Positions 3,508 through 27,331 of a stretch of 64,000 nucleotides of DNA are shown piece by piece. Origin of the DNA: an archaeon GW2011_AR5 (GTDB lineage: Archaea > Aenigmatarchaeota > Aenigmatarchaeia > GW2011-AR5); the NCBI GenBank assembly GCA_000806115.1, contig JWKQ01000002.1, positions 256,815-320,814 of the forward strand, written 5' to 3'. The translations under genes and the position numbers were made by a program. The notes beneath the pieces are model-generated. The model did no database searches. It was not told the origin of the DNA and saw only the letters and a program-made list of their open reading frames with translations. Positions within the stretch are counted from its first letter, which is position 1. Each line of letters opens with the position of its first letter.

Positions 3508-4428
3508 ATGAAGGGCTTGTGGCTGCTGGCGGCTTTCCTTCTCGTTTCTTCTGTTTCAAATGCCGCGTTAACGAACTGGAGCGTCGATATATCAATAAAC
3601 GACGACGGCGGCACCGACTGGACTGCCGTATTAACCTACAACAACACTGTCACAAGAAGCGACTATTTCGTGCTCTCGCGTATTACCAATGTTCAGGTAT
3701 CGGGAGACGGCGTGCCGCTGGAATGCGTCTCAACCTACAGCCTTGGCACCTCTATCGTCTGCGATGGAATAGCCGCCCGCGAGGTTGTCTATAAATTCAA
3801 TGTCAAGGCGCTTGTCAGCGACCTCCAGAATTTCAAGCTCTTCAGGTATCCGTTTTCTGTGACGGAAACAGTTGACAGGATGCAGATTACGGTCAAGTTC
3901 CCCCTTGGAGCGGCCCTTGTGGAGGACCTGAAGCTTGGCGGAACAGGACTTAGCAAGTTTGAGCCGGATTTCGGGCGCGAAGGCACTGACGGGCGCCGCA
4001 TATTCGTTACATGGGTGTATGACAAGCCCATTCTGGGGCAGTCAATTAACATCTATGCCATCTACGAGGTTCTTGGAATTGACCCTTTCATGATTTTTGT
4101 CGTAATTCTGGCGCTTGTCATAATTGCCTTCCTGATAACAATAATGTTCATATTTAGGAAGCAAAGGGTGAAGGACTTGCTCCCCGTTCTTACCGACGGT
4201 GAAAGAAAGGTGATGGAAATACTGCTGAGAGAAAAGGGCGAAGTTGATCAGAGGACTATTGTCCGCGAGACCGACTTCAGCAAACCAAAGGTATCACGCG
4301 TAATCAATGACTTGATTGAGAGAGGCCTGGTGGATAAGATTTCAAAAGGGCGCAAGAACCTCATAAAGCTCAAAAAAGAGGTAAAAAGGGTAGATTCTAG
4401 AGATGTCAAATCAAAAGAACAAAAATAA
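3508..4428 (+). CDS. Membrane-tethered transcription regulator: signal peptide + extracytoplasmic domain + TM + cytoplasmic winged-helix HTH
   Basis: Signal peptide MKGLWLLAAFLLVSSVSNA, a ~190-aa external domain, TM FMIFVVILALVIIAFLITIMFIF, then LTDGERKVMEILLREKGEVDQRTIVRETDFSKPKVSRVINDLIERGLV (MarR-like wHTH). The architecture matches archaeal COG2512-type membrane-associated regulators. Confidence 0.8.
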   Translation: MKGLWLLAAFLLVSSVSNAALTNWSVDISINDDGGTDWTAVLTYNNTVTRSDYFVLSRITNVQVSGDGVPLECVSTYSLGTSIVCDGIAAREVVYKFNVKALVSDLQNFKLFRYPFSVTETVDRMQITVKFPLGAALVEDLKLGGTGLSKFEPDFGREGTDGRRIFVTWVYDKPILGQSINIYAIYEVLGIDPFMIFVVILALVIIAFLITIMFIFRKQRVKDLLPVLTDGERKVMEILLREKGEVDQRTIVRETDFSKPKVSRVINDLIERGLVDKISKGRKNLIKLKKEVKRVDSRDVKSKEQK

Positions 4429-4780: not shown

Positions 4781-7504
4781 ATGAAAATGCAATTCAAAAA
4801 ACTAGTAGCAGCAGGTACGCTGGCAGCCCTTATGGTGGGCTCTTCGGCGGCATTTGCAGCTCTAAGCGAATTCCCACGACCATTCGTTACAAGCGACGGT
4901 GTACAGTCGTTTGTTGTTGTGGGAGCGGCAGCAGCTCCTAGCGACGTTGTAGGTGCAGTAGACATCGCAGCTCGAATAGGAGGCTCAGTAACGACAGACG
5001 TGTCTGTCCCTGGAGCAGCGGCTGGCTTTACCATAGAAGGCGGTGACGGCAAGGAAGTAGCGACGACTAACACAAAACTCTACCTGGACGACAGTCTTGG
5101 AAAGAGCGGTGTCAGGAGCACTATGACCAAGGACGACCTGCCAACTCTGTTGAAGACAGAAAAGCTCGAGGACACAGACGGCAGTACAACACACAACTAC
5201 CAGCAGTTCATCTACCTGACGCCAAGCTCGACTTCTTCGGCAAACTACAAGATAGAATTCGAGAAGCCAGGCAGCAGCAGCTCGGTAGACCCGACGTATG
5301 ACATGGGAAGGTTCACAACGTCCCCGACGGACCTTGACTACCTATATAGAACGTACGTAACGTTCGACAAGGATGTCAACATGTCCACGGCAAAGGGCGA
5401 GAGATTGAACCTTTTCGGCAGGACATACACGGTACACACAGATTCTACAGGCGACCCGGCAGGCGCTGGTGCAACAACAGACAAGCTAGTATTGTCTGGC
5501 GGTGCATCCGAAACAGCAGTCCTGAGCGGAGGCGAGTCTATACAGGTAACCGTCAGCGGAGTGACCTACGATGTAACCTTCAAGGGTGCTTCTGACGCAA
5601 ACACTGCAGTTGTTGCGGTGGGAAGCGACCAGAACAACATCGACGAGGGACAGTCCAAGAAAGTCGGCGGCCTTGACGTCTTTGTTGAAAGAGTCTTCGA
5701 CCTTTCATCAACAGACCTGACTCAAGACTCTGTAAAGGTGCAGTTCGGCGCGCAGAAAGTCGTTCTAACCAACGGCGCGAAGGTAAAAATCGGCGACGCT
5801 GAGGACTCGGTAGACGGAACATACGTCAACCTGACCATATCCGGAAGGAAACTTTCGGCATTCCAGGTTGCAGTTGGCGGAAGAAGTTCCAACGAAGACT
5901 TCATCAAGGCGGCCGGCGGCATGTACGTCGACCCTGTATGGAACTCGTTCGGCGTAAACTTCCTGTCCGTAACGCCAGGCCTCACAGACGCCTCGAGAGA
6001 CATGATAAAAGTGTCTCCGTCAGGCGACAACCTGATCCAGGTCAGCTACACAGACGACAGAGGATACGAAAAGACAATAAACTGGGCATACAAGGCCTTG
6101 AGCACTGACACAGTGTTCGACCTTGCAGACAGCAGCAACAACTCCATAGTTGTTGTTGAAGGCACGCCGGTTCCGAAAGACGCGTACTTCCTCACAACGG
6201 CAGGTGAGTTCTCTCACATGTTCCGCGTGACGGGTATCAGCGCAGACGGTTCCAGCTCTGCAAGCGCAGACCTGACGGACCAGTTCTCCGGAGCAACCCT
6301 AAAGTTGAACCTTGGAACGGGTAACGACGAATCAAAGGTCATTGACGGACAGACGTTCTATGTTGTTGCGAACAGCACGCACCTGTCAAACGTGACATGG
6401 GGCGGAAACTCCGGTTTCAACAACACAGGTTACTTCACGACCGTCTTCCCGACCTTGAAGGGACGAAGAGGCGAAAGGCTCGCGCTATTCAAGCCTAACG
6501 CAACCGTCTCAGGACTGGCGAACAGCGGCTCAAGAATAGACCTCCCGACAGGTGCCCTGAACTTCACGTTCTACGAAGGCAACGGCGGAACACAGAACCT
6601 CAACATAACTGCCGTAGCTAAGGAGGACGGACAGGCATCTGCTCTGGCAGCTGCAGTGACGGGCGTGAACGCGTCCAACACAGGAGCTGTGTACAACGTA
6701 ACCTTGGGCAGAACAGCAACCGGCGGCCTGATATACGCACTGAAATTCCCAAACAACAACCGATCAGTGTCCATATCAGTAGTCGGCAGCGCAGCTGGCG
6801 TTGAGCTAAGCAGGCCTGGTGTCTTGATTGTCGAAGAGAAAGACGACAACAGCGACCAGTACAGCTTCCTCACAGCCGCGTCTTCAGAAACCTCGGGTTC
6901 CAACAACGTAGCCATACCGGGAGCGCCTGACTTCACTGCAAGTGAAGACTCGGCAGCGCTCGGCAGCGAGTCATCTGTCACAGACTATGTAGACCTTTAC
7001 GGTGCCTACGCTCGAAGAACAACTTCGGGACAGGACATCATAACGTTCTACTACCCTGACGACCAGGTGACATCCAATGTCTTCGTGTTGGCGAAAGAGG
7101 CAACTGTTACCCAGACGTCTGGCGGAACAGGCAGCACTGTTAAAAGTGCGACGCCTGTGAAGACAGCACTGGGTAAGCTGGACTCGGAAGTCACATCTGC
7201 AGACAAATCTACCAAGCACCTCATCCTGGTTGGTGGACCGGCAGTCAACACTCTCGTAGCAGAGTTGGCGACGGCAGGCAAGACCAGAGACACTGCATGG
7301 TACAGATCCCAGGGAGCAGGCACAGCCTTGGTCGACCTCGTCGAGAATGCATTCACATCCGGCAGGACGGCATTGGTTGTAGCAGGCCACTCGGCTGCGG
7401 ACACGCGCTCTGCAACAAGCAGAATCCAGAACTATGACGCCTACACTTGGGCAACCGACAGAGTTGTTCTCAAGAACGGTGTCGTAACGACGGAAACGGC
7501 TTAA
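4781..7504 (+). CDS. S-layer protein (Methanococcales-type S_layer_N/S_layer_C family)
   Basis: Signal peptide MKMQFKKLVAAGTLAALMVGSSAAFA, then FPRPFV...FVVVGAAAAPSDVVGAVDIAARIGG. The C-terminus has KHLILVGGPAVNTLVAELA. These are the conserved N- and C-terminal signatures of that S-layer family. AGGAGG lies 4 nt upstream of the ATG, and the protein has many NxS/T sequons. Confidence 0.9.
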   Translation: MKMQFKKLVAAGTLAALMVGSSAAFAALSEFPRPFVTSDGVQSFVVVGAAAAPSDVVGAVDIAARIGGSVTTDVSVPGAAAGFTIEGGDGKEVATTNTKLYLDDSLGKSGVRSTMTKDDLPTLLKTEKLEDTDGSTTHNYQQFIYLTPSSTSSANYKIEFEKPGSSSSVDPTYDMGRFTTSPTDLDYLYRTYVTFDKDVNMSTAKGERLNLFGRTYTVHTDSTGDPAGAGATTDKLVLSGGASETAVLSGGESIQVTVSGVTYDVTFKGASDANTAVVAVGSDQNNIDEGQSKKVGGLDVFVERVFDLSSTDLTQDSVKVQFGAQKVVLTNGAKVKIGDAEDSVDGTYVNLTISGRKLSAFQVAVGGRSSNEDFIKAAGGMYVDPVWNSFGVNFLSVTPGLTDASRDMIKVSPSGDNLIQVSYTDDRGYEKTINWAYKALSTDTVFDLADSSNNSIVVVEGTPVPKDAYFLTTAGEFSHMFRVTGISADGSSSASADLTDQFSGATLKLNLGTGNDESKVIDGQTFYVVANSTHLSNVTWGGNSGFNNTGYFTTVFPTLKGRRGERLALFKPNATVSGLANSGSRIDLPTGALNFTFYEGNGGTQNLNITAVAKEDGQASALAAAVTGVNASNTGAVYNVTLGRTATGGLIYALKFPNNNRSVSISVVGSAAGVELSRPGVLIVEEKDDNSDQYSFLTAASSETSGSNNVAIPGAPDFTASEDSAALGSESSVTDYVDLYGAYARRTTSGQDIITFYYPDDQVTSNVFVLAKEATVTQTSGGTGSTVKSATPVKTALGKLDSEVTSADKSTKHLILVGGPAVNTLVAELATAGKTRDTAWYRSQGAGTALVDLVENAFTSGRTALVVAGHSAADTRSATSRIQNYDAYTWATDRVVLKNGVVTTETA

Positions 7505-7815: not shown

Positions 7816-8034
7816 ATGTCGGGGCAGAATGTGGTCGAGAAAAGAATCTTGACTTTATTGAGCAGGGAAATAATGTCTACTTCTCAGGTTGCGAAGAAAC
7901 TCAATATGCGCCGCGAGCTGACTGCGGGATATCTCGAGGCATTGAGGCATCAGGGCAAGCTTGAGAAGACGAAAGTGGGCAAGTCAAATATTTACCGGAC
8001 AATCGCCGCAATCGAAGGCGTCGACAGGAACTGA
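7816..8034 (+). CDS. Small winged-helix DNA-binding protein (72 aa)
   Basis: LLSREIMSTSQVAKKLNMRRELTAGYLEALRHQGKLEKTKVGKSNIY has an HTH-plus-wing pattern. TATA GTATAAATATAAG lies about 30 nt upstream of the ATG. Confidence 0.7.
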   Translation: MSGQNVVEKRILTLLSREIMSTSQVAKKLNMRRELTAGYLEALRHQGKLEKTKVGKSNIYRTIAAIEGVDRN

Positions 8035-8103: not shown

Positions 8104-11100
8104 ATGAACGGATTCATGAAGGGAATAATAAAGACGGGCGTGATATTCTCAGCAGTGTTTGTAGCGGCAATTGCTTTATTCTATGTTCTGCCTGTGTTTG
8201 CAGGTCCCGGAATCACGCTGACAAGGGAAAACCCTTCCCCAGCCAATAACACCAATGTCTCCACCGTAGGCCTTGCCAGAGGATACTTCTTCGTTAACAT
8301 CTCAATCAACGAGTCGCTTATATCACTGGCAAATCTGGAGGTCTACAACCTCAGCGATGCTGGCAGCCTATTCATGAACTTCACTATGACAAACAGCACT
8401 GATAACACGATTCTCAATTATACTTATTTCAATGTAACTGGCTTGTTCAACGGCACGTTCACATGGCGGGTGGTCGGCGTAAACACATCCTCACTGGGTG
8501 CCAACCAGACATTCGGCAACTTCACTGTGACGCTCGGCCAGATATACAACGCAGTCATCACAAATCCGACGAACAACACTAACACAGCAAACGACCTGAC
8601 GCCTGAAATACGTGTGAGCGCCAACAGCACATTCCTCACGAACATGTCCCTGACACTCTACACTAACAAGGCTGGAGTCATCCAGGCTGTCAGAAACCTT
8701 ACAATTTTAAACGGCACCGAAACAGCTTTCAACCTGACGCAGCTCACCGGCGGCACCTACAACATAATAGCTGAGGCCGGCAATGGCGCGGATTTCAAGG
8801 TAAATTCAACTGCTCTCACGATCGTTGTCACATACCTCGAGGCAAACGCGACTCTTGACGTTTCTAATGTGCGCGCTGGTGCAGAGCAGAATTATACTTT
8901 CACTGTAGCCAATAACGGCACAGACACAATAGACAGGATCAACATAACTTACGACGCCGGCTTCGAGGATCCTGTAGCCGGCGACATCGTATGCCCTATA
9001 ACGACAAACATTTGGAACCGTTCCGTTGATGCCACGAACAACATGGTATCGTGCATCATGCCTGACCGTGACGTTGACTCTGGCATAACCTCTGGCAACT
9101 CGAAGACAATTAAAGTGGAAAACTGGTCGGCGTCTAATGTCGCTGGCAACAAGACATTCTTGGTGGATGTCCGAGGGCTCAAGAACGGGAATTCCAGCGT
9201 AGTCGCTAACATGCCTGCTGTCGCCGTATTTGGAAACCTGACAATCACAGGCACCAGCCGCGCAGCGGCAGCCAACCAGACTGGCACGACGAACCTGACG
9301 ATGATTTCATTCAACTTCTCCGCGACAGGCGAGCAGATGAACATCACGCAGATAATACTTACGCGCAACGGCACTGTAACCGATGCGGACATAGTTGAAG
9401 TGAAGCTGTACAACAGCACGCGCGAGAATGTAGGCGCAGCTTACAATGCAACAGAGGATTTCGACATAATTGCCGTCAACTCAAGCGCGCCTTCAAACGG
9501 ACGCTACACGTTCAGCGGGCTAAATTTCCGTGTTAATTCAAGCCAGATTGTCATTGTTGTCGTGAATGTCTCCAGCAGCGCTACGGGCGGCAGGACGATG
9601 AACTTCAGCATCGAAGGAGCGGCTGATGTCACGAGCGCAGGCAACGAGTCGAAGCAGGCAATAACCGAGACATTCGCAAGCCAGCGCTCGACAAGCACCA
9701 CGCTCTATGGCACTGTTTCAGTTACAGGCGCCTCGCGCGCGCCGGCAACCTCTGCCATCGGGGCAGGCAACGTGACAGTCATATCATTCAACTTCACAAC
9801 GACAGGCGAAGCTGTCAACATCACGGGCCTGAACATAACCCTCAACGGCACCGGCCTGACTGCAGCCGATATAAAGCACATCGGCCTTTACAACAGCACA
9901 TCAGCTGACGCCGGAGTGCTGGATGGGAGCGGCGTGAATTATGACTTGATTCAGTGGAACATATCCGAGCCTGTCAAGCCGGGAGACGACACGACGCTCA
10001 GGTACAACTTCTCTAACATCGCATTCAATGTCAGTTCAGGCGCCACAAACGTATTGCTTGTAGTTGTCAATGTCTCAGGCAGCGCAACAGGAGGGCACAA
10101 ATTCAACGCCTCCATCGAGGGCGCAGGTGATATAATTTCAACAGGCGTAAGCTCAGGACAGTCTCTAGTCGAAACGCTTGCCACGATGCGATCGGATAAT
10201 TCAACAATATACGGCAATCTCTCCATAGTCGGCACGAGCCGCGTTTCATCGACGACACAGATAGGTTCGAAGAATGTGACAGTCATCTCGTTCAACTTCA
10301 CCGCAACAGGCGAGGACATGAACATAACAGGAATTAATATTACAATCAACGGCACGAACCTTGCCGTCAGCAACATCGACAGGGTTGCGCTGTACAACAG
10401 CACGCTGCCCAATGCAAATGTCTTCAACGGCACGGTGTCATACGACCTGATCGCATGGAACAACTCTGCGCCTGTGGTGACAGGGAGTTCAATGAGATAT
10501 AACTTCTCCAACCTTGGCAAGTTCAATGTTTCCAGCAGCGCAGTGAACACGCTGCTTGTAGTAATAAATCTCACTGACGAGGGCGTCGCAGGCAGGACAT
10601 TCAACGCCTCCATCGAGGGCGCAGCTGACGTGGTGACAAAAGGCGGAACATCCAATCTTGCAATAACAGAAACTATATCAGGCCAGCGCTCGACAAGCTC
10701 CACGATATATGGCAATGTCTCGGTGGTTGGGTCGAGCATCGCTCCCGCGGGTGCTGACGTGGGACAGATAGGTGTGGGCTTCCTGAAGCTGACGCTCAAC
10801 GCAACAGGCGAGGCAGTCAATATATCAAGCATCAACATAACCTCTAACAACACAAGGAACCAGGATGTGCTGAGAGTAAGACTGTTCGACGACCTGGGCG
10901 GCACGTCAACAGGAACCTACGAGCGGAATGCCGACCTTCCGGTAGCCGGAGCAACTGGCTCGTTCGGCGGCGACTCCAGCGGTTCTGTGCTGCTGACGCC
11001 GACAAACCCGATCAACATTTCTGTCAATTCACTGCATTATGTTTACGTTGTCTTCGACATCAACACCAGCGCCACAGCCGGGCTTGACAGGCTCGGTGCA

Positions 11101-14100
11101 AGCATCCAGAGTGTCACTGCAACAACTGCCCAGGGCAATGACAGCTATGTATCGGTGACGCCGCAGCTTACAACAGGCGATCCTGGCGCAGTTAATGTCG
11201 ACATCAGAAACCTGACAGGCACCGCTTCCGCCATCACAACAGGAACAGCTGTTGCACGCACGGGTGCTGGAACGCTGAACAACTTCACTGTGACAGTGAA
11301 TAACACAGCTACAGGTACCCTGAAAGATTCAATAGACGAAATTAGGATACTGTTCGGCGGCACGGGCTTTACGTTCGCAGATCAAGCGGGTAACGCAACC
11401 TGCCCGACCATAGCGTCTGTCCCGTGGAACAGGACTATAATATCTGCCAACATCATCGTCTGCAACGTAACAGATTCTGGCGGCAGACTGGCGGCAGACA
11501 CGAATACAACAATAAGCCTGGAAAACTTCACGGCATCCGGAACTGCAGGCATATATCAGCTTAATGTTTCTGTCAGGGGCGCCTTGGGCGGCGTGTTCAA
11601 CGTATCATCGAACCCGTCAATAAGTGTTTACGGAAACCTGACAGCCAAAGCTACCAACGGCGTCAACGCGACGACAGAGGTAGGCAAGAACAGGATAACA
11701 TTCTTCTACATTAACCTCTCAGCAAGCGGCGAGGCAATGAATGTCTCGGAAATACTTGTCACGTTCAATGGGACAGGGCTCGTGGCAGCTGACATCGCGT
11801 CAGTCGAGCTCTACAACAGCACTGACAAGAGCACGACTATTGTCAACGGCTCACAGACGCTCATAAGGACGAACGTCACGCCTTCGGCGCCTGACCTTAC
11901 TTACAACTTCTCGGGCCTCAACTTGTCTGTCCCGGCTGACGTTACCGGACAAATTGTGCTGGTTGTTGCGAACATATCAGGCAGCGCAACCGGCGGGCAT
12001 GTTGCGAATGCGACAGTTATCAACAATAACAACATGGTGACAATCGGCTCGCTGACAGGAATCAACGCAGCCGAGAACTTCACTACTCAGGTCAACTCGA
12101 CGAACACGACAATAATTGGCAATCTCTCCATAGTCGGCACGAGCCGCGTCTCATCGACAACGGCAATCGGCACTAACAACATCACAATAATATCGTTCAA
12201 CTTCACCGCAGCGGGCGAGGCCATGAACATCAGCGGAATAAACATAACAATAAATGGCAGCAGCATAACGGCAGCTGATATAGTCGGCGTTGCGCTGTAC
12301 AACAGCACGCTGCCCAATGCAAATGTCTTCAACGGCACGGTGTCATACGACCTGATCGCATGGAACAACTCTGCGCCTGTCAAGCCGGGCGACGACACGA
12401 CGCTCAGGTACAACTTCTCCAACCTTGGCAAGTTCAACGTGTCTGCCGGCGAGACAAATACACTGCTTGTTGTCATCAACCTGTCCAGCAGCGCAACCGG
12501 CGGGCGGGCATTCAACGCCTCCATAGAAGGCGCAGCTGACGTAGTAACGACAAGCGCCATATCAGACAAATCCATAACAGAGACGTTCGTTAGCCAGCGT
12601 TCCGCAACTTCGACAATTCTTGGCACGCTGTCGATAACAGGAACCAGCCGCGTCGCAACTTATACGCGTCTGGGCACGAACAACGTAACAATTATATCAT
12701 TCAACGTCTCCAGTTCTGGGGAAGCGATGAATATAACAGGCATCAACATAACCCTTAACGGCACACGTACTACAGCCGATATAGCCCGCGTAGGCATATA
12801 CAACAGTACTCTTCCGGACGCAGGAGTGTTCAACGGCACGGTGTCATACGACCTGATTGCCTGGAACAACTCCGAACCTGTCAATGGCAGATATAACTTC
12901 TCGAACATTGCATTCAATATAAGCTCAGGCGGCTCGAACACGCTTCTCGTTGTGGTGAATGTGTCAAGCAGCGCCATAGGCGGGCTTACATTCAACGCCT
13001 CCATAGAAGGCGCAGCTGACGTTGTAACGACAGGCGTGACATCGGGATCAACCATCGCAGAAACTGTCGCAACGCCGCGCTCCGATAGCTCCACACTCGT
13101 GTCGCTCATAGCGATTGGAACAAGCCGCGCTCCGGCTACGGCTATTGTCAACAAGACAAACATTACCTTGATATCATTCAATGTTTCCGCTCTGGGCGAA
13201 CAGATGAACATAAGCGGCATAAACATCACGATTAACGGGACGGTCAATGTGAGCGCCATAGCCAGCGTAGGCATATACAACAGCACTCTTCCGGATGCAG
13301 GAGTGTTCAACGGCACGGTGTCATACGACCTGATTGCCTGGAACAACTCCGAGCCTGTGGGTGGTGGAGGAAACACGCTCAGGTACAACTTCTCCAACCT
13401 TGGCAAGTTCAACGTTTCTGTTGGCAGCAATACCCTGCTTGTAGTTGTGAATCTCTCAGGCAACGCGGCAGGCGGCGCGACATTCAACGCCTCCATCGAG
13501 GGCGCAGCTGACATGGTAACGACCGGCGGCGTGTCTGGTTTGGACATCACCGAGACGCTTGCAACACAGCGTTCGTCAAGCACGACAATATTTGGCAATC
13601 TTTCAGTTACCGCAACGGATTCGCTGGCTTCATGGACGCGCCTCGGCTCGACTAATGTTACAGTTCTCATACTGAATTTCACCGCGACAGGCGAACAGAT
13701 GAATGTGTCCGAAATTATACTTACAAGGAACGGGACCGTTACGGATGCGAACATAATCGAAGTCAAGCTCTACAGCACGGACAGACCTGACATCGCGAAC
13801 TTCAATGGAAGCCAGACGCCTCTTGTGACTAACCTCACGCCTTCTGCCAACAGGTACAACTTCTCCAACATCAATCTGTCGGTGCCGGCTGGAGCTACGG
13901 GCAAAATAGTCCTCGTGGTTGTCAACGTGTCAGGAACGAACACGGGAGCGGGCGGAAGCACGTTCAACTTCTCAGTTGAATCTGCATCTGACATAGTGTC
14001 GAGCGGCAACACGTCATATCAATCAATAGCAGAAACCCTAACAGGCAGCATAAGGTCTAATACGTCAACACTAGTGGGCATAAATGTCACCGCCACCGCA

Positions 14101-15585
14101 CTGGCGCCATCCATTATGTCAGCAAACCAAACAGCAACTGCTATGCTCAACATAAGCGTGACGTCATCCGGTGAGTCGATGAACATAACAAGCTTCAATT
14201 TCACGCTTACAGGCAACGCGACAACTGGCAACATCAGCGACGTGCGTCTTTACAGGGACGACGCAGCGCCACTGGGCGCATTCACGGACGCGGACACATA
14301 TCTGGTAACTCGAGGCACGTTTAACGAAGCAGATATCCAGCTCAACCTTTCAGTTATCAACTACAACCTGTCAGTGCCAACGAGCGCGACAAGGTTCTTC
14401 GTGACATTCAATATATCCGGCGGCGCTCGTACATGGGCAACAGTTGGGGTGCAACTCACTCCTAGCGGCATAGCGGCTGTCGGCAATGCATCAGGCCTTG
14501 CAATATCAGTGACGGGCAATTCAGTTGCATCCACGAACTCGACGATCCAGTCCGAAGCAAACCTGATATTCGGCACCGTCACGTCGAACTATCCTTGGAT
14601 TACCAACAAGACAACTTTGGTAAACACAACTAACATTTCAATTCCGATAACGAACGGGGGTGCAGCCACGGCAACATTGACGAGCGTGCTTATAACGTTC
14701 CTCAGCGAGGCCAATGCCAACAATGCATCGTCCAATTTCACTGTGGTCCGTGCTGACACAGTTGCATCAATAGCGGGCGGTGTCACAACTACGCTGAACT
14801 TCACTGTAAACGCCACGACAGGCGCGCAGCTTGTCGGCCGCGTAAACGCTAGCGTGATGCTGAGATATAATGACAGCAATTCCGCCGCCGCAGTCACAGC
14901 CGGCCCTGTAGAGACAAACACATCAGGATTGTTCGGCGTGGACGGGACATCGCCGACAATAAGCATAGTCAACCCTGTCCTCAGCGGCAATGTCAGCGGC
15001 AATCAGGTTGACGTAAACTTCACTCTCAATGACACGGGCTCTGGAGTCAACAGAAGTGCAATAGCAATAAGCATAAACAGCGTGGCGAGGAACGCGACAT
15101 GCAACAGCAGCGGGCTCAATTTCACCTGCAATTTCACGCTTTTCAGCAGCGACAGCTTGTTTGTGTTCGGAAGCATCACCGCGCGAATAACGAATATCAC
15201 TGACAACGCGACGAACTCGGCGAGCACGGCAGAAATCAACTTCACGCTCAACAACAATGATGGTGTCGCGAATCTGACAAGGCCGATAGTAGGCGCGGAC
15301 CCGTATGCTCTTGGCTGGAATACCATCCAGATGCCGACGCAGACCATGATGGAACAGCAGGGCAGGAATGCGTCGAACACCGGTGATTTCAACTTCACGT
15401 CGCTCATGGCGAGCCTGGGCACCAGCTGGACTCACATGTATTACAATACAAACGGCACGAGCACAGGCTGGGTACTGGCAACAAGGACGGATTTCGCGGG
15501 TTCCACGCTGAAATATCTGAACAACACGAATGCCAATCCTTACTGGATAAACATGACATCGCGTGGCATGGTGTTCAAGATATAA
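8104..15585 (+). CDS. Giant (2493 aa) secreted, N-glycosylation-sequon-saturated repeat protein (adhesin or S-layer-associated)
   Basis: N-terminal signal/anchor GVIFSAVFVAAIALFYVLPVFA, then about ten tandem ~150-165-aa modules. There is roughly one NxS/T sequon every 10-15 residues (by eye, not counted), no cysteine-rich domain and no C-terminal anchor. GGAGTG lies 8 nt upstream of the ATG. Confidence 0.9.
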   Translation: MNGFMKGIIKTGVIFSAVFVAAIALFYVLPVFAGPGITLTRENPSPANNTNVSTVGLARGYFFVNISINESLISLANLEVYNLSDAGSLFMNFTMTNSTDNTILNYTYFNVTGLFNGTFTWRVVGVNTSSLGANQTFGNFTVTLGQIYNAVITNPTNNTNTANDLTPEIRVSANSTFLTNMSLTLYTNKAGVIQAVRNLTILNGTETAFNLTQLTGGTYNIIAEAGNGADFKVNSTALTIVVTYLEANATLDVSNVRAGAEQNYTFTVANNGTDTIDRINITYDAGFEDPVAGDIVCPITTNIWNRSVDATNNMVSCIMPDRDVDSGITSGNSKTIKVENWSASNVAGNKTFLVDVRGLKNGNSSVVANMPAVAVFGNLTITGTSRAAAANQTGTTNLTMISFNFSATGEQMNITQIILTRNGTVTDADIVEVKLYNSTRENVGAAYNATEDFDIIAVNSSAPSNGRYTFSGLNFRVNSSQIVIVVVNVSSSATGGRTMNFSIEGAADVTSAGNESKQAITETFASQRSTSTTLYGTVSVTGASRAPATSAIGAGNVTVISFNFTTTGEAVNITGLNITLNGTGLTAADIKHIGLYNSTSADAGVLDGSGVNYDLIQWNISEPVKPGDDTTLRYNFSNIAFNVSSGATNVLLVVVNVSGSATGGHKFNASIEGAGDIISTGVSSGQSLVETLATMRSDNSTIYGNLSIVGTSRVSSTTQIGSKNVTVISFNFTATGEDMNITGINITINGTNLAVSNIDRVALYNSTLPNANVFNGTVSYDLIAWNNSAPVVTGSSMRYNFSNLGKFNVSSSAVNTLLVVINLTDEGVAGRTFNASIEGAADVVTKGGTSNLAITETISGQRSTSSTIYGNVSVVGSSIAPAGADVGQIGVGFLKLTLNATGEAVNISSINITSNNTRNQDVLRVRLFDDLGGTSTGTYERNADLPVAGATGSFGGDSSGSVLLTPTNPINISVNSLHYVYVVFDINTSATAGLDRLGASIQSVTATTAQGNDSYVSVTPQLTTGDPGAVNVDIRNLTGTASAITTGTAVARTGAGTLNNFTVTVNNTATGTLKDSIDEIRILFGGTGFTFADQAGNATCPTIASVPWNRTIISANIIVCNVTDSGGRLAADTNTTISLENFTASGTAGIYQLNVSVRGALGGVFNVSSNPSISVYGNLTAKATNGVNATTEVGKNRITFFYINLSASGEAMNVSEILVTFNGTGLVAADIASVELYNSTDKSTTIVNGSQTLIRTNVTPSAPDLTYNFSGLNLSVPADVTGQIVLVVANISGSATGGHVANATVINNNNMVTIGSLTGINAAENFTTQVNSTNTTIIGNLSIVGTSRVSSTTAIGTNNITIISFNFTAAGEAMNISGINITINGSSITAADIVGVALYNSTLPNANVFNGTVSYDLIAWNNSAPVKPGDDTTLRYNFSNLGKFNVSAGETNTLLVVINLSSSATGGRAFNASIEGAADVVTTSAISDKSITETFVSQRSATSTILGTLSITGTSRVATYTRLGTNNVTIISFNVSSSGEAMNITGINITLNGTRTTADIARVGIYNSTLPDAGVFNGTVSYDLIAWNNSEPVNGRYNFSNIAFNISSGGSNTLLVVVNVSSSAIGGLTFNASIEGAADVVTTGVTSGSTIAETVATPRSDSSTLVSLIAIGTSRAPATAIVNKTNITLISFNVSALGEQMNISGINITINGTVNVSAIASVGIYNSTLPDAGVFNGTVSYDLIAWNNSEPVGGGGNTLRYNFSNLGKFNVSVGSNTLLVVVNLSGNAAGGATFNASIEGAADMVTTGGVSGLDITETLATQRSSSTTIFGNLSVTATDSLASWTRLGSTNVTVLILNFTATGEQMNVSEIILTRNGTVTDANIIEVKLYSTDRPDIANFNGSQTPLVTNLTPSANRYNFSNINLSVPAGATGKIVLVVVNVSGTNTGAGGSTFNFSVESASDIVSSGNTSYQSIAETLTGSIRSNTSTLVGINVTATALAPSIMSANQTATAMLNISVTSSGESMNITSFNFTLTGNATTGNISDVRLYRDDAAPLGAFTDADTYLVTRGTFNEADIQLNLSVINYNLSVPTSATRFFVTFNISGGARTWATVGVQLTPSGIAAVGNASGLAISVTGNSVASTNSTIQSEANLIFGTVTSNYPWITNKTTLVNTTNISIPITNGGAATATLTSVLITFLSEANANNASSNFTVVRADTVASIAGGVTTTLNFTVNATTGAQLVGRVNASVMLRYNDSNSAAAVTAGPVETNTSGLFGVDGTSPTISIVNPVLSGNVSGNQVDVNFTLNDTGSGVNRSAIAISINSVARNATCNSSGLNFTCNFTLFSSDSLFVFGSITARITNITDNATNSASTAEINFTLNNNDGVANLTRPIVGADPYALGWNTIQMPTQTMMEQQGRNASNTGDFNFTSLMASLGTSWTHMYYNTNGTSTGWVLATRTDFAGSTLKYLNNTNANPYWINMTSRGMVFKI
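9232..14550 (+). repeat. About ten tandem coding repeats (~450-500 nt each) inside the giant gene
   Basis: The module consensus is ..G(T/A)SR....G..N(V/I)T.ISFNF(T/S)A.GE.MNI(T/S)GINIT.NGT....I..V.LYNST....VFNGTVSYDLIAWNNS.PV...RYNFSN..FNVS....TLLVV.N.S.SA.GG..FNASIEGAADVVT......I.ET....RS..ST. A CARDB-like segment occurs twice (about aa 250-380 and about aa 1040-1170), implying a higher-order duplication. Confidence 0.85.
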
Positions 15586-17466: not shown

Positions 17467-18417
17467 ATGCACTGGACAAAATCCAAAGGTACAGGCGGGC
17501 GTATCGGGAGCGAAGAGGATTTCATCGTCGAAGAAATTCCTTCGAGAAAATATTTCTCAAGGTTCAGGCGCAGCGGCTCTGGCGTGAAAACCGTCGAAGG
17601 GCCCTACACTCTCGGGGTTCTGTGGAAAAAGGGTATGACTACGAGAGGGGCGCTTGATGCTGTCGGGAAGGAACTGAACCTGAAACGCGACGACATCGGC
17701 TATGCGGGGCTGAAGGACAAGTTCGCAGTCACTTCGCAGTATATCACCGTCAAGGGAAATATTTCTGAAATTTGCAAAGAAAATCTCCGGCTAAGCGTTG
17801 CAGGGCGCACGGACAGGATGATGCAGGTTGGCGATCTTGAAGGAAACCGCTTTGCAATAACTCTGCGATCGTGCAGGAGTCCGAAGAACATAACAGCTTT
17901 CGTGAAGGAAATATCTTCAAGAGGCATGCCAAACTATTTCGGGCCGCAGAGATTCGGCATGCACGGGAATAATCATATTATCGGCAAATTGCTGCTGAAT
18001 GACAGAAAAGAAGCGATGAAGCTTATAGACAGGAACGGCGGCAATACTGAAAAGCGAACGCTGAAATTTTACATTCATGCTTACCAGTCTTACCTGTTCA
18101 ACAAGCTTCTCGACAGGTATATTTCCATTCATACCAAACCGTTTTTTGGGGAATTTCCGATAGCCGGTTTTGACGCAAAGCTGAAAGACGACTTCGCAGG
18201 CAAAGAAATGAGGAAAATAATGAAGGAAGAAGCCGTAAAGACGGAGGACTTTTCTGTCAGGGAACTCAGCATCAGGTGCACAGGCTCGTCCCGCGCCGCG
18301 TTTGTCATGCCGAAAGAAATAAATTATAAGATAGACGGAAAAACAGTCGAACTCCGTTTCGTACTTCCGAAAGGCTCTTACGCGACAGTTCTTATCAGGG
18401 AAGCATCAAAAGTCTAG
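17467..18417 (+). CDS. truD: tRNA pseudouridine synthase TruD/Pus7 family
   Basis: IGYAGLKDKFAVTSQYITV contains the catalytic GxKD motif. NYFGPQRFG and the C-terminal LPKGSYATVLIRE are also typical of TruD. Confidence 0.85.
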   Translation: MHWTKSKGTGGRIGSEEDFIVEEIPSRKYFSRFRRSGSGVKTVEGPYTLGVLWKKGMTTRGALDAVGKELNLKRDDIGYAGLKDKFAVTSQYITVKGNISEICKENLRLSVAGRTDRMMQVGDLEGNRFAITLRSCRSPKNITAFVKEISSRGMPNYFGPQRFGMHGNNHIIGKLLLNDRKEAMKLIDRNGGNTEKRTLKFYIHAYQSYLFNKLLDRYISIHTKPFFGEFPIAGFDAKLKDDFAGKEMRKIMKEEAVKTEDFSVRELSIRCTGSSRAAFVMPKEINYKIDGKTVELRFVLPKGSYATVLIREASKV

Positions 18418-19122
18418 GTCGCTGGATTCGACTATCCTGTGCACTTTCGCGTTCCCGACATTGTAGTAGAAGCCGTCGTGTACGAAGAAGCTCATCCTTT
18501 TTTCGTCCTTCGTCATCTCCTGGATTACGTGCTGGCTGAAATCAAGTTCTGCCTGATGAACGTTCCTCAGCCTGCTGATGTAGTCAAGCACTTCCCTTTC
18601 CGCGTAGAATATCGGGCAGTTCGGGTATTTTCCCAGCACGGCAAAATCTATGAGCGGCTTCTCGTTTATTATCAGAGTTTCTCCCGCCTGCTCGAGCATC
18701 CCTTCTCCTATGTCAAAGAATCTTGCGCCACACATTGTCAAAGTGTTTTCTTTTTCTTCGTGCAGCCTCAGCATTGCAGCCAGATCGACATTTGCCACAA
18801 CATCCCCGTAATAAACGAGAAATGTTTTTCCGTCAAGGAGATGTCTCGCATTATGAACTTCACCTGCGGTGCCCGATGGTGCGTCAGCATGGGAAAACCG
18901 CACCTTCGTATTGTCCGCGAAATAATCCGTTATCTGGCTTCCGTACGTGCTGCTTGCCACGGCTATTACCGGCTCGAAGCCGTATCTCAGGAGCCTGTCG
19001 ACCGTATGCGCGATTATTGGACGTCCGTCCTTCATCGGAAGCATTACCTTCGGTTTTCCTGCAGCAGCTTCGTATCCCTGCATCCTGGTTCCATGTCCGG
19101 CTGCAAGTATCACAACTTTCAT
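18406..19122 (-). CDS. Sugar-phosphate nucleotidyltransferase (NTP_transferase family)
   Basis: The N-terminal MKVVILAAGHGTRM..KPKVMLP signature (G-x-G-T-R-x) matches glucose-1-P thymidylyl/uridylyltransferase-like enzymes. Its 3' end overlaps truD convergently by 12 nt. Confidence 0.85.
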   Translation of the reverse strand: MKVVILAAGHGTRMQGYEAAAGKPKVMLPMKDGRPIIAHTVDRLLRYGFEPVIAVASSTYGSQITDYFADNTKVRFSHADAPSGTAGEVHNARHLLDGKTFLVYYGDVVANVDLAAMLRLHEEKENTLTMCGARFFDIGEGMLEQAGETLIINEKPLIDFAVLGKYPNCPIFYAEREVLDYISRLRNVHQAELDFSQHVIQEMTKDEKRMSFFVHDGFYYNVGNAKVHRIVESSDLDF

Positions 19123-19206
19123 GATAGAATGCTTGAATGAAAGTTTTTAATAATGAATCTCGAAGTTGTTGCAGCCTTTTTAATAAGTAATTACAAAACT
19201 ATCAGC

Positions 19207-19764
19207 ATGAAACCCCGTGTTGTACTCCCGATATTGCTTATTTCGGTGATCGTCATCTCCGGCTGTGTGGAAGAACAAGAGCCGGTTACAGAGATATACG
19301 TGCCCGGACACGGGAACCAGATATACGCATTTCACAATGACATCCGCGAGTCGCTGAAAGTCCCGGTTAATAACCCGGAAGGGATAAAGGCACTTGCAGC
19401 AGTTTCAAACGGCATGTACCTTGTTTTCGACGGTTCGAACCCGCAGGATAACGCGTATTTCACTATTGTCACGACTGAGATTACTCAGAAAATTTCAACC
19501 TATTATTCATATGAGGGCAGGCTGTTCGGTTTCATGCCTTACTACCATATTGGAAGCCAGTGGTATGATTCAGGAGGCAAAGAGATAAACAAGCCTGATT
19601 TCTCCGGACCCGTGATGTGGCTTCTGGGACCGTCGACGGGTGCTAATGACACGTCAGTTACCCTTGTGAACAGCACTGTCTACATTAGCGGGACCAGCTA
19701 CAATAATCTTACGCTTGCAGGAGACAAGTTCGTCCTCCTGATTTTCGGCATAGACAGGGTTTGA
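19207..19764 (+). CDS. Secreted lipoprotein-like hypothetical protein
   Basis: MKPRVVLPILLISVIVISGC has a signal peptide with a lipobox-like ISGC. The ATG at 19207 is preferred over the track start 19153; TATA-like CTTTTTAATAAG lies about 25 nt upstream. Confidence 0.65.
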   Translation: MKPRVVLPILLISVIVISGCVEEQEPVTEIYVPGHGNQIYAFHNDIRESLKVPVNNPEGIKALAAVSNGMYLVFDGSNPQDNAYFTIVTTEITQKISTYYSYEGRLFGFMPYYHIGSQWYDSGGKEINKPDFSGPVMWLLGPSTGANDTSVTLVNSTVYISGTSYNNLTLAGDKFVLLIFGIDRV

Positions 19765-19773
19765 GGCGAGAGG

Positions 19774-20970
19774 ATGCTATTCGACGCGATGCCCTATATA
19801 GTGGCTTACGTATCATTGTTTCTTTCGATATTCTGGTTCACTGTTTATTTTTCACACGAGCCAAAGCAAAAAAGGCATGGATATGCCCCTGCGATTTCGA
19901 TAATCGTTCCTGCACATAACGAGCAATTAACAATCGGCAAATGCATAAAATCTCTTATTAAACAGAAGTATGCAAACCTGAAAATTATTGTAGTTGATGA
20001 CGGCTCGACAGACAATACTGGATATGTTGTAAAGTCTCTGAAAAAATCGCATAGTAATATCGGATATCTCAGGACAAATCATATCGGGAAAGCTGCTGCG
20101 ATGAACGTTGCCCTTCGTCATGTGAGAACAGAAGTATTTGGTTTCATCGATGCAGACACGTATCTTTCTGCAGGAACCCTGCATGCCATGGTAAAATATT
20201 TCAATGATGAAACTGCTGCTGTCACTATAGCCATGAAGCCTTCCAAGGCGGTTAACCTGATTCAGAGAATACAAAAAGTTGAATACATGATATCATCGCT
20301 TACCAGAAAACTGCTGAGTTATCTTGATGCGGTGTATTACACCCCGGGTTTTGCAATCTATAAGACTGACGTGATAAAAAAGCTTGGTGGGTTCGATGAA
20401 AAAAACATCACGGAGGATCTTGAAATAGGCATGAGGCTGAAGGATAGTGGATACAACATAGAAAATGTGATAGACAAGGCGGCATTCACTGAGGTGCCGC
20501 AGACATTCCGGGAGCTCTTCAGGCAGAGGATGCGATGGTACAGGGGCTATTTTTACAACAGCAGAAAATACAAGCATATGTTCTTTAACAGGAAATTCGG
20601 TGACTTGGGAATAATGGTACTCCCAATCCAGTATATAGTCCTTGCGCTAATTACACCATTTTTGCTGTTCGCCGTTTACGATATGTCCGTATCATTGCTG
20701 AAGGGCATTATAGACCTGTATCTGACAGGATTCGATGTCGGGTATTTTTTTGAAACAGGATCCTTTATAATTGTGACACCTATGACATTCTTCCTGCTGG
20801 CGCTTGTCGCGTCGTTCGTCATAATGATAAAAATCAGCCAGAGGGAGACAGAGGAAAATGTTGGAAAGTTGACTTATTTGGTTTATATAATTCTTTACCC
20901 TTTTATCAATACGCTGCTCTGGATTAGCGCATTCGTGCATGAAATGTTCGGGACAAAGAAAAGATGGTAA
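19774..20970 (+). CDS. Membrane-embedded GT2 glycosyltransferase, processive synthase-like (QxxRW)
   Basis: ISIIVPAHNEQ...IIVVDDGSTDNT...IDADTYL...TEDLE...QRMRWYRG, flanked by N- and C-terminal TM helices. This is the architecture of cellulose/chitin/PNAG-type synthases. Confidence 0.9.
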   Translation: MLFDAMPYIVAYVSLFLSIFWFTVYFSHEPKQKRHGYAPAISIIVPAHNEQLTIGKCIKSLIKQKYANLKIIVVDDGSTDNTGYVVKSLKKSHSNIGYLRTNHIGKAAAMNVALRHVRTEVFGFIDADTYLSAGTLHAMVKYFNDETAAVTIAMKPSKAVNLIQRIQKVEYMISSLTRKLLSYLDAVYYTPGFAIYKTDVIKKLGGFDEKNITEDLEIGMRLKDSGYNIENVIDKAAFTEVPQTFRELFRQRMRWYRGYFYNSRKYKHMFFNRKFGDLGIMVLPIQYIVLALITPFLLFAVYDMSVSLLKGIIDLYLTGFDVGYFFETGSFIIVTPMTFFLLALVASFVIMIKISQRETEENVGKLTYLVYIILYPFINTLLWISAFVHEMFGTKKRW

Positions 20971-21617
20971 AAATGAAGAAAAATGTTTATATGGCTGCAA
21001 TAATTTTTACATCCCTGATATTTTTTGTGGGAATATTGCTAGGCTCCAGAATAACCGATGAGAATACTGCAAGAATGCAGCGCGAACTGCAGAACGATTT
21101 CCTTGGGATGCAGAGCCTTGAATTGGAGCTTTCAATAGTCAATAATGTCAACAGGACTTCATTTTGCAGCTACATTGATTACAGGTTGCCGGATATTGTC
21201 AGACAAAAGGTGGAACTTGGAAGGAGGTTCGATATCGGGGATATACCTTCCGATCAGGCGGAAGTCTTGAAAAAGCAGTATCTTCTCTCGCTGAGCAAAT
21301 ACTGGCTATTTTCTGAAGTCAGCAAGAAGCAGTGCAGGGTGGGCAACCCTGGTATAGTATTCTTCTTCGACTCGTCAGAAGCCTCGCGCGAGCAGGGGAG
21401 GATACTGGATTATCTTGTGTATAAATCAGACGAAAATATCACGGTCTTCGCTTTCAATACAGAATGGGATGAGCCGCTTATGAGGCTCGTTATGATCAGC
21501 TATAATGTGACCGGCACACCCACAGTAGTTATAGATGATGTCAGCTACAGCGGACTCCAGACAAGAGAAAAGCTGGCAGAAACTTTGTGCAAGAACTACA
21601 ACCTTACTCTTTGTTAG
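20964..21617 (+). CDS. Membrane-anchored hypothetical protein, possibly with a thioredoxin-like C-terminal fold
   Basis: N-terminal TM AAIIFTSLIFFVGILLG. The C-terminal ...GIVFFFDSSEASREQG...VTGTPTVVIDD resembles a Trx-fold beta-alpha-beta with cis-Pro (weak). It overlaps the upstream GT2 by 7 nt. Confidence 0.65.
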   Translation: MVKMKKNVYMAAIIFTSLIFFVGILLGSRITDENTARMQRELQNDFLGMQSLELELSIVNNVNRTSFCSYIDYRLPDIVRQKVELGRRFDIGDIPSDQAEVLKKQYLLSLSKYWLFSEVSKKQCRVGNPGIVFFFDSSEASREQGRILDYLVYKSDENITVFAFNTEWDEPLMRLVMISYNVTGTPTVVIDDVSYSGLQTREKLAETLCKNYNLTLC

Positions 21618-21651
21618 CTATTTTAAAAACTCAAGACAGATTAGTGATAGC

Positions 21652-22947: not shown

Positions 22948-22978
22948 CTGTTTTTATAGGTATCAGGCGAAATCCTGT

Positions 22979-24211: not shown

Positions 24212-24213
24212 AA

Positions 24214-24558
24214 TCACTTCAGCAGCGGCATGGACCCGGTTATTTTATTGATTTTTTCTTCCTTCTCGGGGCCTATTGCAAGCGCTGTCGCAGTGCCGGG
24301 TATCAGCTCTGTCAGTCCGGCGTCTATTACCAGTGAGCAGGAAACCTTGTGCTTGCCGCATTTTGCCTTCAGCTCAAACAGATCCTTTTCATTCCTCGCC
24401 TGGACTACAACCTTTTTCTGTCCTTCTTTTTTCCATGCAGAGACGATTTTTTTGTCGGCAGTGTCAAGGGCAGAAACGGCGGCATGCGAGGATTGCGCGG
24501 CAATTTTGCCGACGCTCATTTCGATGTCGGAACGAATTACTATTATCATCTTGTACAT
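24214..24558 (-). CDS. pth2: Peptidyl-tRNA hydrolase, archaeal/eukaryotic Pth2 type
   Basis: MSVGKIAAQSSHAAV...VIDAGLTELIPGTATALAIGP is the PTH2 family signature. Size is 114 aa. Confidence 0.9.
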   Translation of the reverse strand: MYKMIIVIRSDIEMSVGKIAAQSSHAAVSALDTADKKIVSAWKKEGQKKVVVQARNEKDLFELKAKCGKHKVSCSLVIDAGLTELIPGTATALAIGPEKEEKINKITGSMPLLK

Positions 24559-24661
24559 CTTATCACTTTTTCTTAATTTTTTCTTGATAGTTTTTAATTA
24601 GTAACTTTTGTTTCTTATCAAGCTTATTTATTCAATTATATCTTTCGGTGAATCTTAAGTA

Positions 24662-25964: not shown

Positions 25965-25997
25965 AAAAATAATTGATTGATTAATTTAATAACACAA

Positions 25998-26037: not shown

Positions 26038-26046
26038 CGCAAGCGC

Positions 26047-26574: not shown

Positions 26575-26607
26575 GCTAATTATTCTGAGAGAATCGGATA
26601 AAAAGGG

Positions 26608-27300: not shown

Positions 27301-27331
27301 GAGGATAATAGAACCTGAAAAGATTATTAGA

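Follow-up and report, generated by a model that had tools for sequence, protein, structure and literature searches.

Heavily N-glycosylated surface proteins composed of several immunoglobulin (Ig)-like domains are well known from archaea, in which N-x-S/T is the acceptor motif of the oligosaccharyltransferase AglB. SlaA of Sulfolobus acidocaldarius carries 31 of these sequons in 1,424 amino acids (aa), nearly all of them occupied, and its 'remarkable glycosylation density' has been pointed out (PMC5744192, PMC10903991). In the part of SlaA resolved by cryo-electron microscopy, 19 of the 20 sequons are glycosylated, and the lattice contacts lie on unglycosylated surfaces (PMC10903991). Surface proteins of Nanobdella aerobiophila have 36-52 predicted sites in 908-1,320 aa (bioRxiv 10.1101/2023.10.27.564410). 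Dense glycosylation of archaeal envelopes is usually explained by thermostability and protection against heat and acid (PMC10903991, PMC5744192). The present study concerns a giant open reading frame (ORF) of the groundwater archaeon GW2011_AR5, a Candidatus Aenigmarchaeota member of the DPANN archaea. It lies in a 64-kb stretch of contig JWKQ01000002.1, the whole of which is called the window. The product, termed the giant protein, holds 190 sequons in 2,493 aa and is on balance likely to be a Sec-exported, modular, hyper-N-glycosylated cell-surface rod with a family-specific C-terminal domain.

Data and methods

All sequences are metagenome assemblies, in which the copy number of modules in repetitive genes may be mis-assembled. 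A sequon was defined as N-x-S/T with x other than P, and the reversed motif [ST]-x-N served as control. Chance expectation was derived from 2,000 composition-preserving shuffles of the giant protein. Modules were detected by a phmmer self-search with one module of the giant protein. An alignment of 37 modules from the giant protein and its homologues (A1) was the basis for the AlphaFold2 model of the module. The module family was collected by an exhaustive HMMER search of the module profile against cluster representatives, and sequon densities were determined for the best 150 of 2,214 matches. Synteny was compared between the window and three related metagenome-assembled genomes (MAGs). Hydrophobicity of the giant protein was calculated according to Kyte-Doolittle. 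AglB was searched for with the STT3 Pfam profile among ORFs of at least 500 aa and as the WWDxG motif in six frames.

Sequon content and conservation

The 190 sequons of the giant protein comprise 84 NxS and 106 NxT motifs. Shuffled sequences contained 67.9±6.7 sequons with a maximum of 95, which places the observed number at z ~18. The reversed motif occurs 73 times, the chance level. This difference between 190 forward and 73 reversed motifs makes the enrichment directional, as for a motif read by an enzyme and not for a by-product of strands rich in Asn, Ser and Thr. Sequons include 66% of the 286 Asn residues and follow each other at a mean distance of 13.1 aa (median 11, largest gap 56). 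An earlier note on this DNA had estimated one sequon every 10-15 residues by eye and had named a density equal to that of shuffled sequence as evidence against its glycosylation claim; the estimate agrees with the exact spacing, and the count is far above the shuffled expectation. The density of 7.6 sequons per 100 aa compares with 0-2.2 in the other ORFs of the window and 1.3 in the S-layer protein.

Nine homologues all have 6.5-7.8 sequons per 100 aa, versus 2.2-3.4 for the reversed motif. Orthologues at 59-67% identity keep 85-90% of the sequons in the same alignment column, compared with 33-53% of the Asn residues outside sequons; the sites are thus better conserved than the sequence of the protein as a whole. 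At ~38% identity, 48-57% of the sequons are kept in place and the totals still amount to 155-176. Position and density of the sequons both appear to be maintained, and these patterns support a direct, directional selection on the sequons of the giant protein.

Domain architecture

The ORF is the largest of the window and was resolved into the following parts:

8104..15585 (+): giant ORF, 2,493 aa, 190 sequons
8104..8202 (+): aa 1-33, probable Sec signal peptide with a basic 'KG' n-region and a 23-aa hydrophobic segment, LPVFA↓GP (the arrow marks the putative cleavage site); the alternative is an uncleaved N-terminal anchor
8203..8859 (+): aa 34-252, N-terminal non-module region; 21 sequons (9.6 per 100 aa, among the densest parts of the protein), no Pfam match
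8860..9228 (+): aa 253-375, first spacer domain with a Cys pair, homologous to aa 1050-1175
9229..11193 (+): modules 1-4, aa 376-1030, PF14873-like beta-sandwich repeats with ~12 sequons each
11194..11628 (+): aa 1031-1175, second spacer domain, paralogue of aa 253-375
11629..14550 (+): modules 5-10, aa 1176-2149, from the phmmer self-search
14551..15255 (+): aa 2150-2384, two further non-module regions, from the AlphaFold2 model and the alignment
15256..15582 (+): aa 2385-2493, conserved C-terminal domain, aromatic-rich; candidate attachment or binding end

The mature protein has a calculated mass of ~254 kDa and an isoelectric point of 4.6. Self-search yielded ten modules of ~160 aa in a 4+6 layout, with modules 1-4 at aa 376-534, 535-702, 703-868 and 869-1030 and modules 5-10 at aa 1176-1338, 1339-1506, 1507-1667, 1668-1829, 1830-1995 and 1996-2149. 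The earlier description as the largest gene of the window, encoding about ten tandem modules in groups of four and six, is confirmed by these boundaries; the C-terminal non-module part, given there as ~450 aa, actually measures 344 aa (2150-2493). At the DNA level, the modules are diverged direct repeats with a spacing of 477-504 nucleotides and 60-96% identity (repeat finder). Tandem Repeats Finder reported no array in the giant gene, the DNA copies being too diverged. Since the copies are old and diverged, the module repeat is not a collapsed or duplicated assembly.

The two segments at aa 253-375 and 1050-1175 are homologous (34% identity, E 1e-15) and have a Cys pair in common, and their paralogy points to a unit of 'spacer + modules' that was duplicated in an ancestor. 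They had been called CARDB-like. The kinship between the two is real, but Pfam searches found no CARDB match (PF07705) even at E ≤5; the best matches were DUF7507 (E 0.03) and NPCBM_assoc (E 0.04). In the N-terminal, spacer and C-terminal regions, no Pfam match was better than E 0.03. The S-layer family profiles PF05123 and PF05124 do not match the giant protein, unlike its neighbour encoded at 4781-7504.

The number of modules, which the earlier note had proposed to compare among relatives, ranges from 4 to 10 in complete homologues and from 4 to 10 or more in relatives at large. In one related locus (L001, positions 10001-18874, GCA_016184005.1), the orthologue is broken up into three ORFs in a row (1,786, 566 and 403 aa), and the conserved C-terminal domain stands at the end of the third. 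Either a frameshift or pseudogenisation, or faulty assembly of the repeats, accounts for this.

Averaged over 71 modules of nine proteins, a module has 12.5±1.9 sequons, even though the modules are only 24-73% identical. About 13 alignment columns hold a sequon in 43-97% of the modules, and N38 is invariant, so that the placement of sequons at conserved module positions, seen earlier by eye, is now quantified. In the modelled module, 10 of 13 sequon Asn residues are located in strands. The middle residue x is I, F, V, L, M, W or Y in 55% of the sequons, versus a background of 31% (whole protein). In a beta-sandwich, strand alternation would turn the Asn and Ser/Thr of such sequons to the solvent and x to the hydrophobic core. 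A sequon-free stretch recurs in the last ~40 residues of each module (…IEGAADVVTTG…ETxxxQRSxSST…) and is a candidate contact face between modules or with other proteins. The sequon-free patch is well conserved, for instance at aa 514-556, 1471-1527 and 1631-1683 (within 9229-14550 of the window).

Fold of the module

AlphaFold2 modelled the module as an all-beta sandwich of ~11 strands, with a mean predicted local distance difference test (pLDDT) of 93.7 and a predicted template modelling score (pTM) of 0.89. In Foldseek comparisons with the PDB, the closest structures were N-terminal domains of Bacteroidetes glycoside hydrolase family 33 (GH33) sialidases, which resemble carbohydrate-binding modules (CBM) (6mrx, 4fj6, 4bbw, 7qy9; E 3e-6 to 3e-4, TMq 0.55-0.60, identity 9-13%). 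Type I cohesins came next (E ~3e-5, TM-score 0.37-0.45). The sole Pfam family matched by the whole giant protein is PF14873 (BNR_assoc_N), with 45.8 bits at a cut-off of 25. This score sums weak repeats; no stretch passes alone, and the scan of a lone module gave no PF14873 match. The precomputed annotation of homologues lists PF14873 as 'faint'. Fold and profile together point to a remote member of the PF14873/cohesin-like beta-sandwich fold.

The module can be placed in this way, remotely, in a named fold, although the earlier note had considered it not assignable. A match to a well-known domain of known function, regarded there as evidence against its proposal, was found for the fold but not for the function. 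Pfam detected no BNR or GH33 catalytic domain anywhere in the giant protein, and without a catalytic partner the known context of PF14873 does not transfer. The module alignment profile matched no PDB sequence at E ≤1, and Foldseek found no viral structure (BFVD) at E ≤1e-3. Only two residues, E35 and the sequon Asn N38, are invariant in the module alignment.

Sequon-rich and sequon-poor relatives

The module profile matched 2,214 cluster representatives at E ≤1e-3, 233 of them at E ≤1e-30. Many of them are giant proteins, the longest of 7,176 aa, and distant members match the profile in as many as 29 stretches. Among the best 150 of the 2,214, 24 proteins reach 5 or more sequons per 100 aa (mean 7.0; reversed motif 2.6), none falls between 2.5 and 5, and 126 stay below 2.5 (mean 1.02; reversed motif 0.99), the chance level. 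A sequon-poor member of 5,201 aa (P0018) adjoins an OmpR-type two-component system, which is a bacterial context. The bimodal density within one module family indicates that saturation is not a property of the fold but a lineage-specific state in archaea.

The sequon-rich group from Aenigmarchaeota has the C-terminal domain in common, and 6/6 GTDB matches are groundwater MAGs of Candidatus Aenigmatarchaeota. The closest relative is RIFCSPLOWO2_01_FULL_48_10 with 96% identity. A second sequon-rich clade differs in its termini. The only member with a taxon name comes from a Methanocellales MAG, where genes for RadA and RPA-like proteins lie nearby in an archaeal context. Members of this clade (P0091, P0108, P0131, P0158, P0171-P0179, and the locus L013, 10001-15601, of the Methanocellales MAG GCA_028687135.1) measure 1,400-2,440 aa, carry 5-7.8 sequons per 100 aa and have the module in common with the giant protein. 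Their N-termini (MNTKGKGK…ASVFAGISASA) and C-termini (…G.GYW…IYPY) are unlike those of the Aenigmarchaeota family. Downstream of the gene in L013 lie genes for exported proteins rich in PKD and fn3 domains.

Export and termini

The sole hydrophobic segment of the giant protein spans aa ~11-33. A basic n-region and an A-x-A-like end point to export via an N-terminal signal peptide. The [AV]-x-[AG] ending of the segment is conserved in homologues, and other exported proteins of the window have signal peptides ending in AAFA↓A (S-layer protein), VSFA↓A and SVFA↓A. The earlier note had left the segment as 'signal/anchor'. Its role as hydrophobic export segment stands; an anchor is less likely, as the x-F-A end resembles those of the neighbours, and the segment is more probably a cleaved Sec signal peptide. 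Cleavage would leave a mature protein without a recognisable membrane anchor. The C-terminus offers none either, as noted earlier: no transmembrane (TM) segment, PGF-CTERM or other recognised anchor was found, and the Kyte-Doolittle maximum in the last 120 aa is 0.37.

The C-terminal 344 aa were modelled by AlphaFold2 from a 15-row alignment with low confidence (pLDDT 52). A beta-sandwich is predicted with moderate confidence for aa 2150-2270 (pLDDT ~55-85). Residues 2271-2384 remain below a pLDDT of 50; their sequence looks Ig-like and includes a Cys pair (ATCNSSGLNFTC). Foldseek returned no match to the C-terminal model at E ≤1e-3, with generic Ig-like alignments to the first sub-domain only. 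The final domain (aa 2385-2493, ~105 aa) is aromatic-rich, with 11.9% F/W/Y. It is present in all complete family members, always at the extreme C-terminus, and was found only in Aenigmarchaeota relatives. A profile of the domain retrieved only fragments of the same family in a word-indexed protein search and nothing in the Methanocellales-like clade, which consequently shares the module but not the C-terminal domain. The domain is the only family-specific candidate for envelope attachment or partner contact.

Gene neighbourhood

The giant gene belongs to an envelope gene cluster conserved between the window and three related MAGs. The neighbouring features in the window are:

3508..4428 (+): membrane protein with signal peptide, ~190-aa extracellular domain, one TM segment and a cytoplasmic winged helix-turn-helix (wHTH) domain of DUF7343/TrmB type
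4781..7504 (+): S-layer-family protein, 907 aa, PF05124 (S_layer_C); 1.3 sequons per 100 aa, not enriched
7816..8034 (+): 72-aa wHTH-like protein, 69 nucleotides upstream of the giant gene; same position in three MAGs, 58-72% identity
15660..16772 (+): exported PGF-pre-PGF domain protein, TIGR04213 (112.8 bits, cut-off 28); conserved synteny
18406..29944 (unstranded region): sugar nucleotidyltransferase and six family 2 glycosyltransferases (GT2), candidate glycan-assembly genes; GT2 genes also lie downstream of the giant gene in related MAGs

The conserved order in the three MAGs runs from a MJ0538-like gene over the membrane DUF7343/TrmB wHTH, S_layer_C, the ~70-aa wHTH and the giant gene to PGF-pre-PGF, followed by further exported proteins, GT2 glycosyltransferases and TruD. 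Downstream of the giant gene, the window holds PGF-pre-PGF, a small TM-anchored protein with a Pro-Thr linker, TruD, the sugar nucleotidyltransferase and the six GT2 genes. The S-layer and small wHTH genes upstream had been recognised earlier from the sequence, and the PF05124 match and the wHTH-like ORF confirm them. Across the same genomes, the giant protein is 30-39% identical, the S-layer protein 46-53% and the small wHTH protein 58-72%, and the faster divergence of the giant protein fits an exposed outer component.

The membrane wHTH protein, first gene of the conserved cluster (45-50% identity in relatives), looks like a one-component transmembrane transcription regulator beside envelope genes. 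The 72-aa wHTH-like protein is the best-conserved gene of the cluster and may be a dedicated regulator of the giant gene. Directly at the stop codon of PGF-pre-PGF begins a gene for an exported protein of 217 aa (16773-17426, +), which consists of a ~130-aa domain, a (PTT)n/PSQ Pro-Thr linker, a C-terminal TM segment and a basic tail. Such a membrane-anchored protein could serve as partner of a surface protein that lacks an anchor. A second sequon-rich protein is encoded downstream of the giant gene in two of the related loci (L002, 11855-14365; L003, 17020-19605). It has 836-861 aa, 5.8-6.0 sequons per 100 aa, a signal peptide, a C-terminal TM segment and a basic tail, and is partly homologous to the PGF-pre-PGF protein of the window, which holds no full-length equivalent. 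A lipoprotein-like ORF of the window (19153-19764, +; …ISGC…) recurs downstream of the giant gene in L002 and L003 with 37-40% identity.

All six GT2 proteins score below the NCBIfam equivalog cut-offs, one being closest to AglJ/dolichyl-phosphate hexose transferase. Three are multi-TM and synthase-like (PgaC/CelA-like), and the nucleotidyltransferase is of the sugar-1-phosphate type. The same region (18406-29944) also holds a CDP-archaeol synthase (26047-26574, above cut-off) and a pentapeptide-repeat protein. AglB was not found in the window, in agreement with the earlier note: neither did ORFs of at least 500 aa match the STT3 Pfam profile nor did the WWDxG motif occur in six frames. A type IV pilus/archaellum-like locus with several multi-TM or unassigned ORFs extends over 31662-46518. 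It includes small class III-type ORFs with MKG plus a hydrophobic stretch at 31662-32018 (-) and 32329-32700 (+), a T2SSF-like membrane protein (41390-43372) and a T2SSE-family ATPase (44296-46518). The sole tRNA gene of the window is tRNA-Thr (CGU) at 1232-1304 (+).

Proposed mechanism and alternatives

Directional sequons, their retention, and unenriched relatives with the same module make a glycan-coated protein the natural reading. The polypeptide would be translocated unfolded through Sec, and AglB, presumably encoded in another part of the genome, would glycosylate most of the ~190 sites during or after translocation. Subsequent folding would produce a chain of ~14-15 all-beta domains, among them the ten copies of the module. 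This would yield a stiff rod sheathed in N-glycans, with a lateral surface consisting almost entirely of glycan and a carbohydrate mass comparable to or above that of the 254-kDa protein. At ~4 nm per domain, its length would be roughly 55-65 nm. The module patch in the last ~40 residues and part of the aromatic-rich C-terminal domain would be largely free of glycans and, by analogy with SlaA, likely sites of protein-protein contact. The C-terminal domain would most likely be the end that holds the rod to the envelope, via the S-layer or a membrane-anchored partner, or that touches a partner cell. The functional surface would be a glycan brush, forming a glycocalyx-like layer, associated with the S-layer, that shields, hydrates or mediates contact. 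The protein may accordingly act as glycocalyx-like shield, as spacer or as cell-contact fibre. The earlier proposal of a heavily glycosylated fibre or adhesin, forming a putative coat above the S-layer, is supported in part, namely as far as export, modularity, the all-beta fold, the selected and retained sequons and a module number as variable as in stalks are concerned.

Several points weigh against the glycan-coated rod. Occupancy of sequons inside beta-strands is assumed; the high occupancy of SlaA provides a precedent on folded beta-sandwich domains (PMC10903991). AglB was not found in ~180 kb of related loci either (WWDxG motif). It has been reported for the DPANN superphylum generally (cited in PMC8993221), and aglB is present in the cultivated DPANN archaeon Nanobdella (bioRxiv 10.1101/2023.10.27.564410). 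With no AglB in the window and the related loci, its presence in this genome rests on the general DPANN distribution (cited in PMC8993221). The adjacent S-layer protein is not enriched in sequons, from which it follows that heavy glycosylation is not general in this envelope. A mature protein without recognisable anchor could simply be released. The role given to the C-terminal region is a guess based on a low-confidence model without fold match, and the modules were counted in metagenome assemblies of repetitive DNA.

The simplest alternative, sequon richness as by-product of an Asn/Ser/Thr-rich beta-strand composition without unusual glycosylation, is scarcely credible. Asn makes up 11.5% and Ser+Thr 24.3% of the residues, shuffles of this composition still yield ~68 sequons, and polar residues alternate with hydrophobic ones in strands. 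The reversed motif should be equally favoured by this alternation, but is found at the chance level. In relatives of the same fold, forward and reversed motifs both equal the expectation, and conservation of the sequons is about double that of the other Asn residues. The directional asymmetry largely refutes this explanation already. It is also very improbable that the giant protein is type IV pilin-like, with 'KG' and the hydrophobic helix as class III signal peptide, and is carried by the pilus from the 31.6-46.5 kb locus, at its tip or elsewhere on it. K-G-hydrophobic motifs recur in the family N-termini before a hydrophobic stretch of 22-25 residues, and the T2SSE ATPase, the T2SSF-like membrane protein and two small MKG-hydrophobic pilin-like ORFs are encoded in the window. 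The hydrophobic segment, however, ends in a conserved [AV]-x-[AG] site of the signal peptidase I type, in the same style as the Sec signals of the neighbours, and in the giant protein Lys is located at +3 after the putative class III cleavage site. The giant gene keeps its synteny with the S-layer gene and not with the pilus locus, from which it is 16 kb away.

Two further alternatives were considered. As a lattice or sheath component of the wall, the giant protein would be a second S-layer protein assembling laterally via glycan-free module faces, like SlaA beside SlaB. Its gene always stands beside S_layer_C in the conserved cluster, every module has a conserved sequon-free patch, the mature protein lacks an anchor, and SlaA itself forms lattice contacts via unglycosylated surfaces (PMC10903991). 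A module number of 4 to 10 or more among close relatives is ill-suited to a fixed lattice and typical of stalks, the giant protein evolves faster than the S-layer protein, and a canonical S-layer family protein is already there; a lattice role is judged unlikely on these grounds. Less probable still is a multivalent lectin, in which the modules would be functional CBMs for host glycans or environmental polysaccharide and the sequons secondary. The best fold and profile matches are indeed the CBM-like N-terminal domain of GH33 sialidases and cohesins, and DPANN archaea are thought to attach to glycosylated hosts, lectin-like proteins having been proposed in Nanobdella (bioRxiv 10.1101/2023.10.27.564410). 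With ~12 glycans on each 160-aa module, however, most of the surface would be covered. The alignment shows no conserved aromatic platform, E35 and N38 being the only invariant residues, the TM-scores reach just 0.55-0.60 at 9-13% identity, and there is no catalytic or dockerin partner.

Significance

If its sites are occupied, a glycan-coated rod of this kind would count among the large proteins with the densest N-glycosylation known. It seems possible, at rather less than an even chance, that the sequon-rich proteins form a discrete, undescribed archaeal class of 'N-glycan bottlebrush' proteins, in which a PF14873-like module, found without sequon enrichment in giant surface proteins elsewhere (at least one of them in a bacterial context), has been re-surfaced in at least two mesophilic lineages, Aenigmarchaeota and a Methanocellales-related one. 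Such a class would be defined by ~12 conserved sites per 160 residues, one per 13 aa, and 100-190 sites per chain. It would represent an N-linked analogue of mucins and a glycocalyx or host-contact layer outside the S-layer, and extreme glycan density would not be tied to hot, acidic habitats. The coat may shield against proteases or viruses, hydrate, act as spacer or, in DPANN symbionts, mediate contact between cells. The sequon-poor relatives with the same module are a built-in natural control for the role of a saturating glycan coat. The system further allows asking how many sequons an archaeal oligosaccharyltransferase fills on a folding beta-sandwich. Annotation gains a fold and a family for a set of large 'hypothetical proteins', and a conserved envelope cluster is defined in Aenigmarchaeota.

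Comparison with known systems

Bacterial fibrillar adhesins and periscope proteins, e.g. SiiE, SasG/Aap and MpIBP, have long stalks of tandem beta-sandwich domains. The giant protein resembles them in its tandem beta-sandwich stalk, variable repeat number, distinct ends and position as the largest gene of the locus. It differs in being archaeal, in the predicted glycan coat and in the lack of an LPXTG, type I secretion system or autotransporter anchor. Judged by the features of fibrillar adhesins, it has no C-terminal TM segment or sorting signal and no adhesive domain recognised by Pfam or Foldseek.

Mucins carry O-glycans on disordered Pro/Thr/Ser repeats. Like mucins and the halomucin of Haloquadratum walsbyi, the giant protein would be a giant extracellular carrier of a dense carbohydrate brush; unlike mucins, it presents N-linked sequons on folded beta-sandwich domains predicted with high confidence. 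Type I cohesins of cellulosome scaffoldins are nine-strand beta-sandwiches of similar size arranged in tandem on a scaffold. Their TM-scores to the module are only 0.37-0.45, and their binding faces are not covered by glycans. To our knowledge, no dockerin-bearing partners are known in the lineage of the giant protein. The sialidase N-terminal domain of PF14873, as the only Pfam family matched and the best structural match of the module model, is the nearest relative in fold. It has no sequons; the giant protein lacks a catalytic domain and has ten tandem, sequon-covered copies.

Literature searches retrieved no description of this protein family or of surface glycoproteins from Aenigmarchaeota. 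The nearest counterparts are SlaA and the Nanobdella proteins, which are likewise exported archaeal envelope proteins of several beta-sandwiches with surfaces covered by N-glycans; for the giant protein, this coat is a prediction. With 7.6 sequons per 100 aa, compared with ~2.2 in SlaA and ~4 in Nanobdella, the giant protein is ~2-3.5 times denser. It has no sequence homology to either and repeats one module in tandem, whereas SlaA and the Nanobdella proteins consist of unique domains; the archaeon that encodes it comes from groundwater and not, as that of SlaA, from a hot acidic habitat. The giant protein is not new in kind. It differs in the density with 190 sites, the single re-surfaced and repeated module, the bimodality within one domain family, and the occurrence in non-thermophilic lineages.

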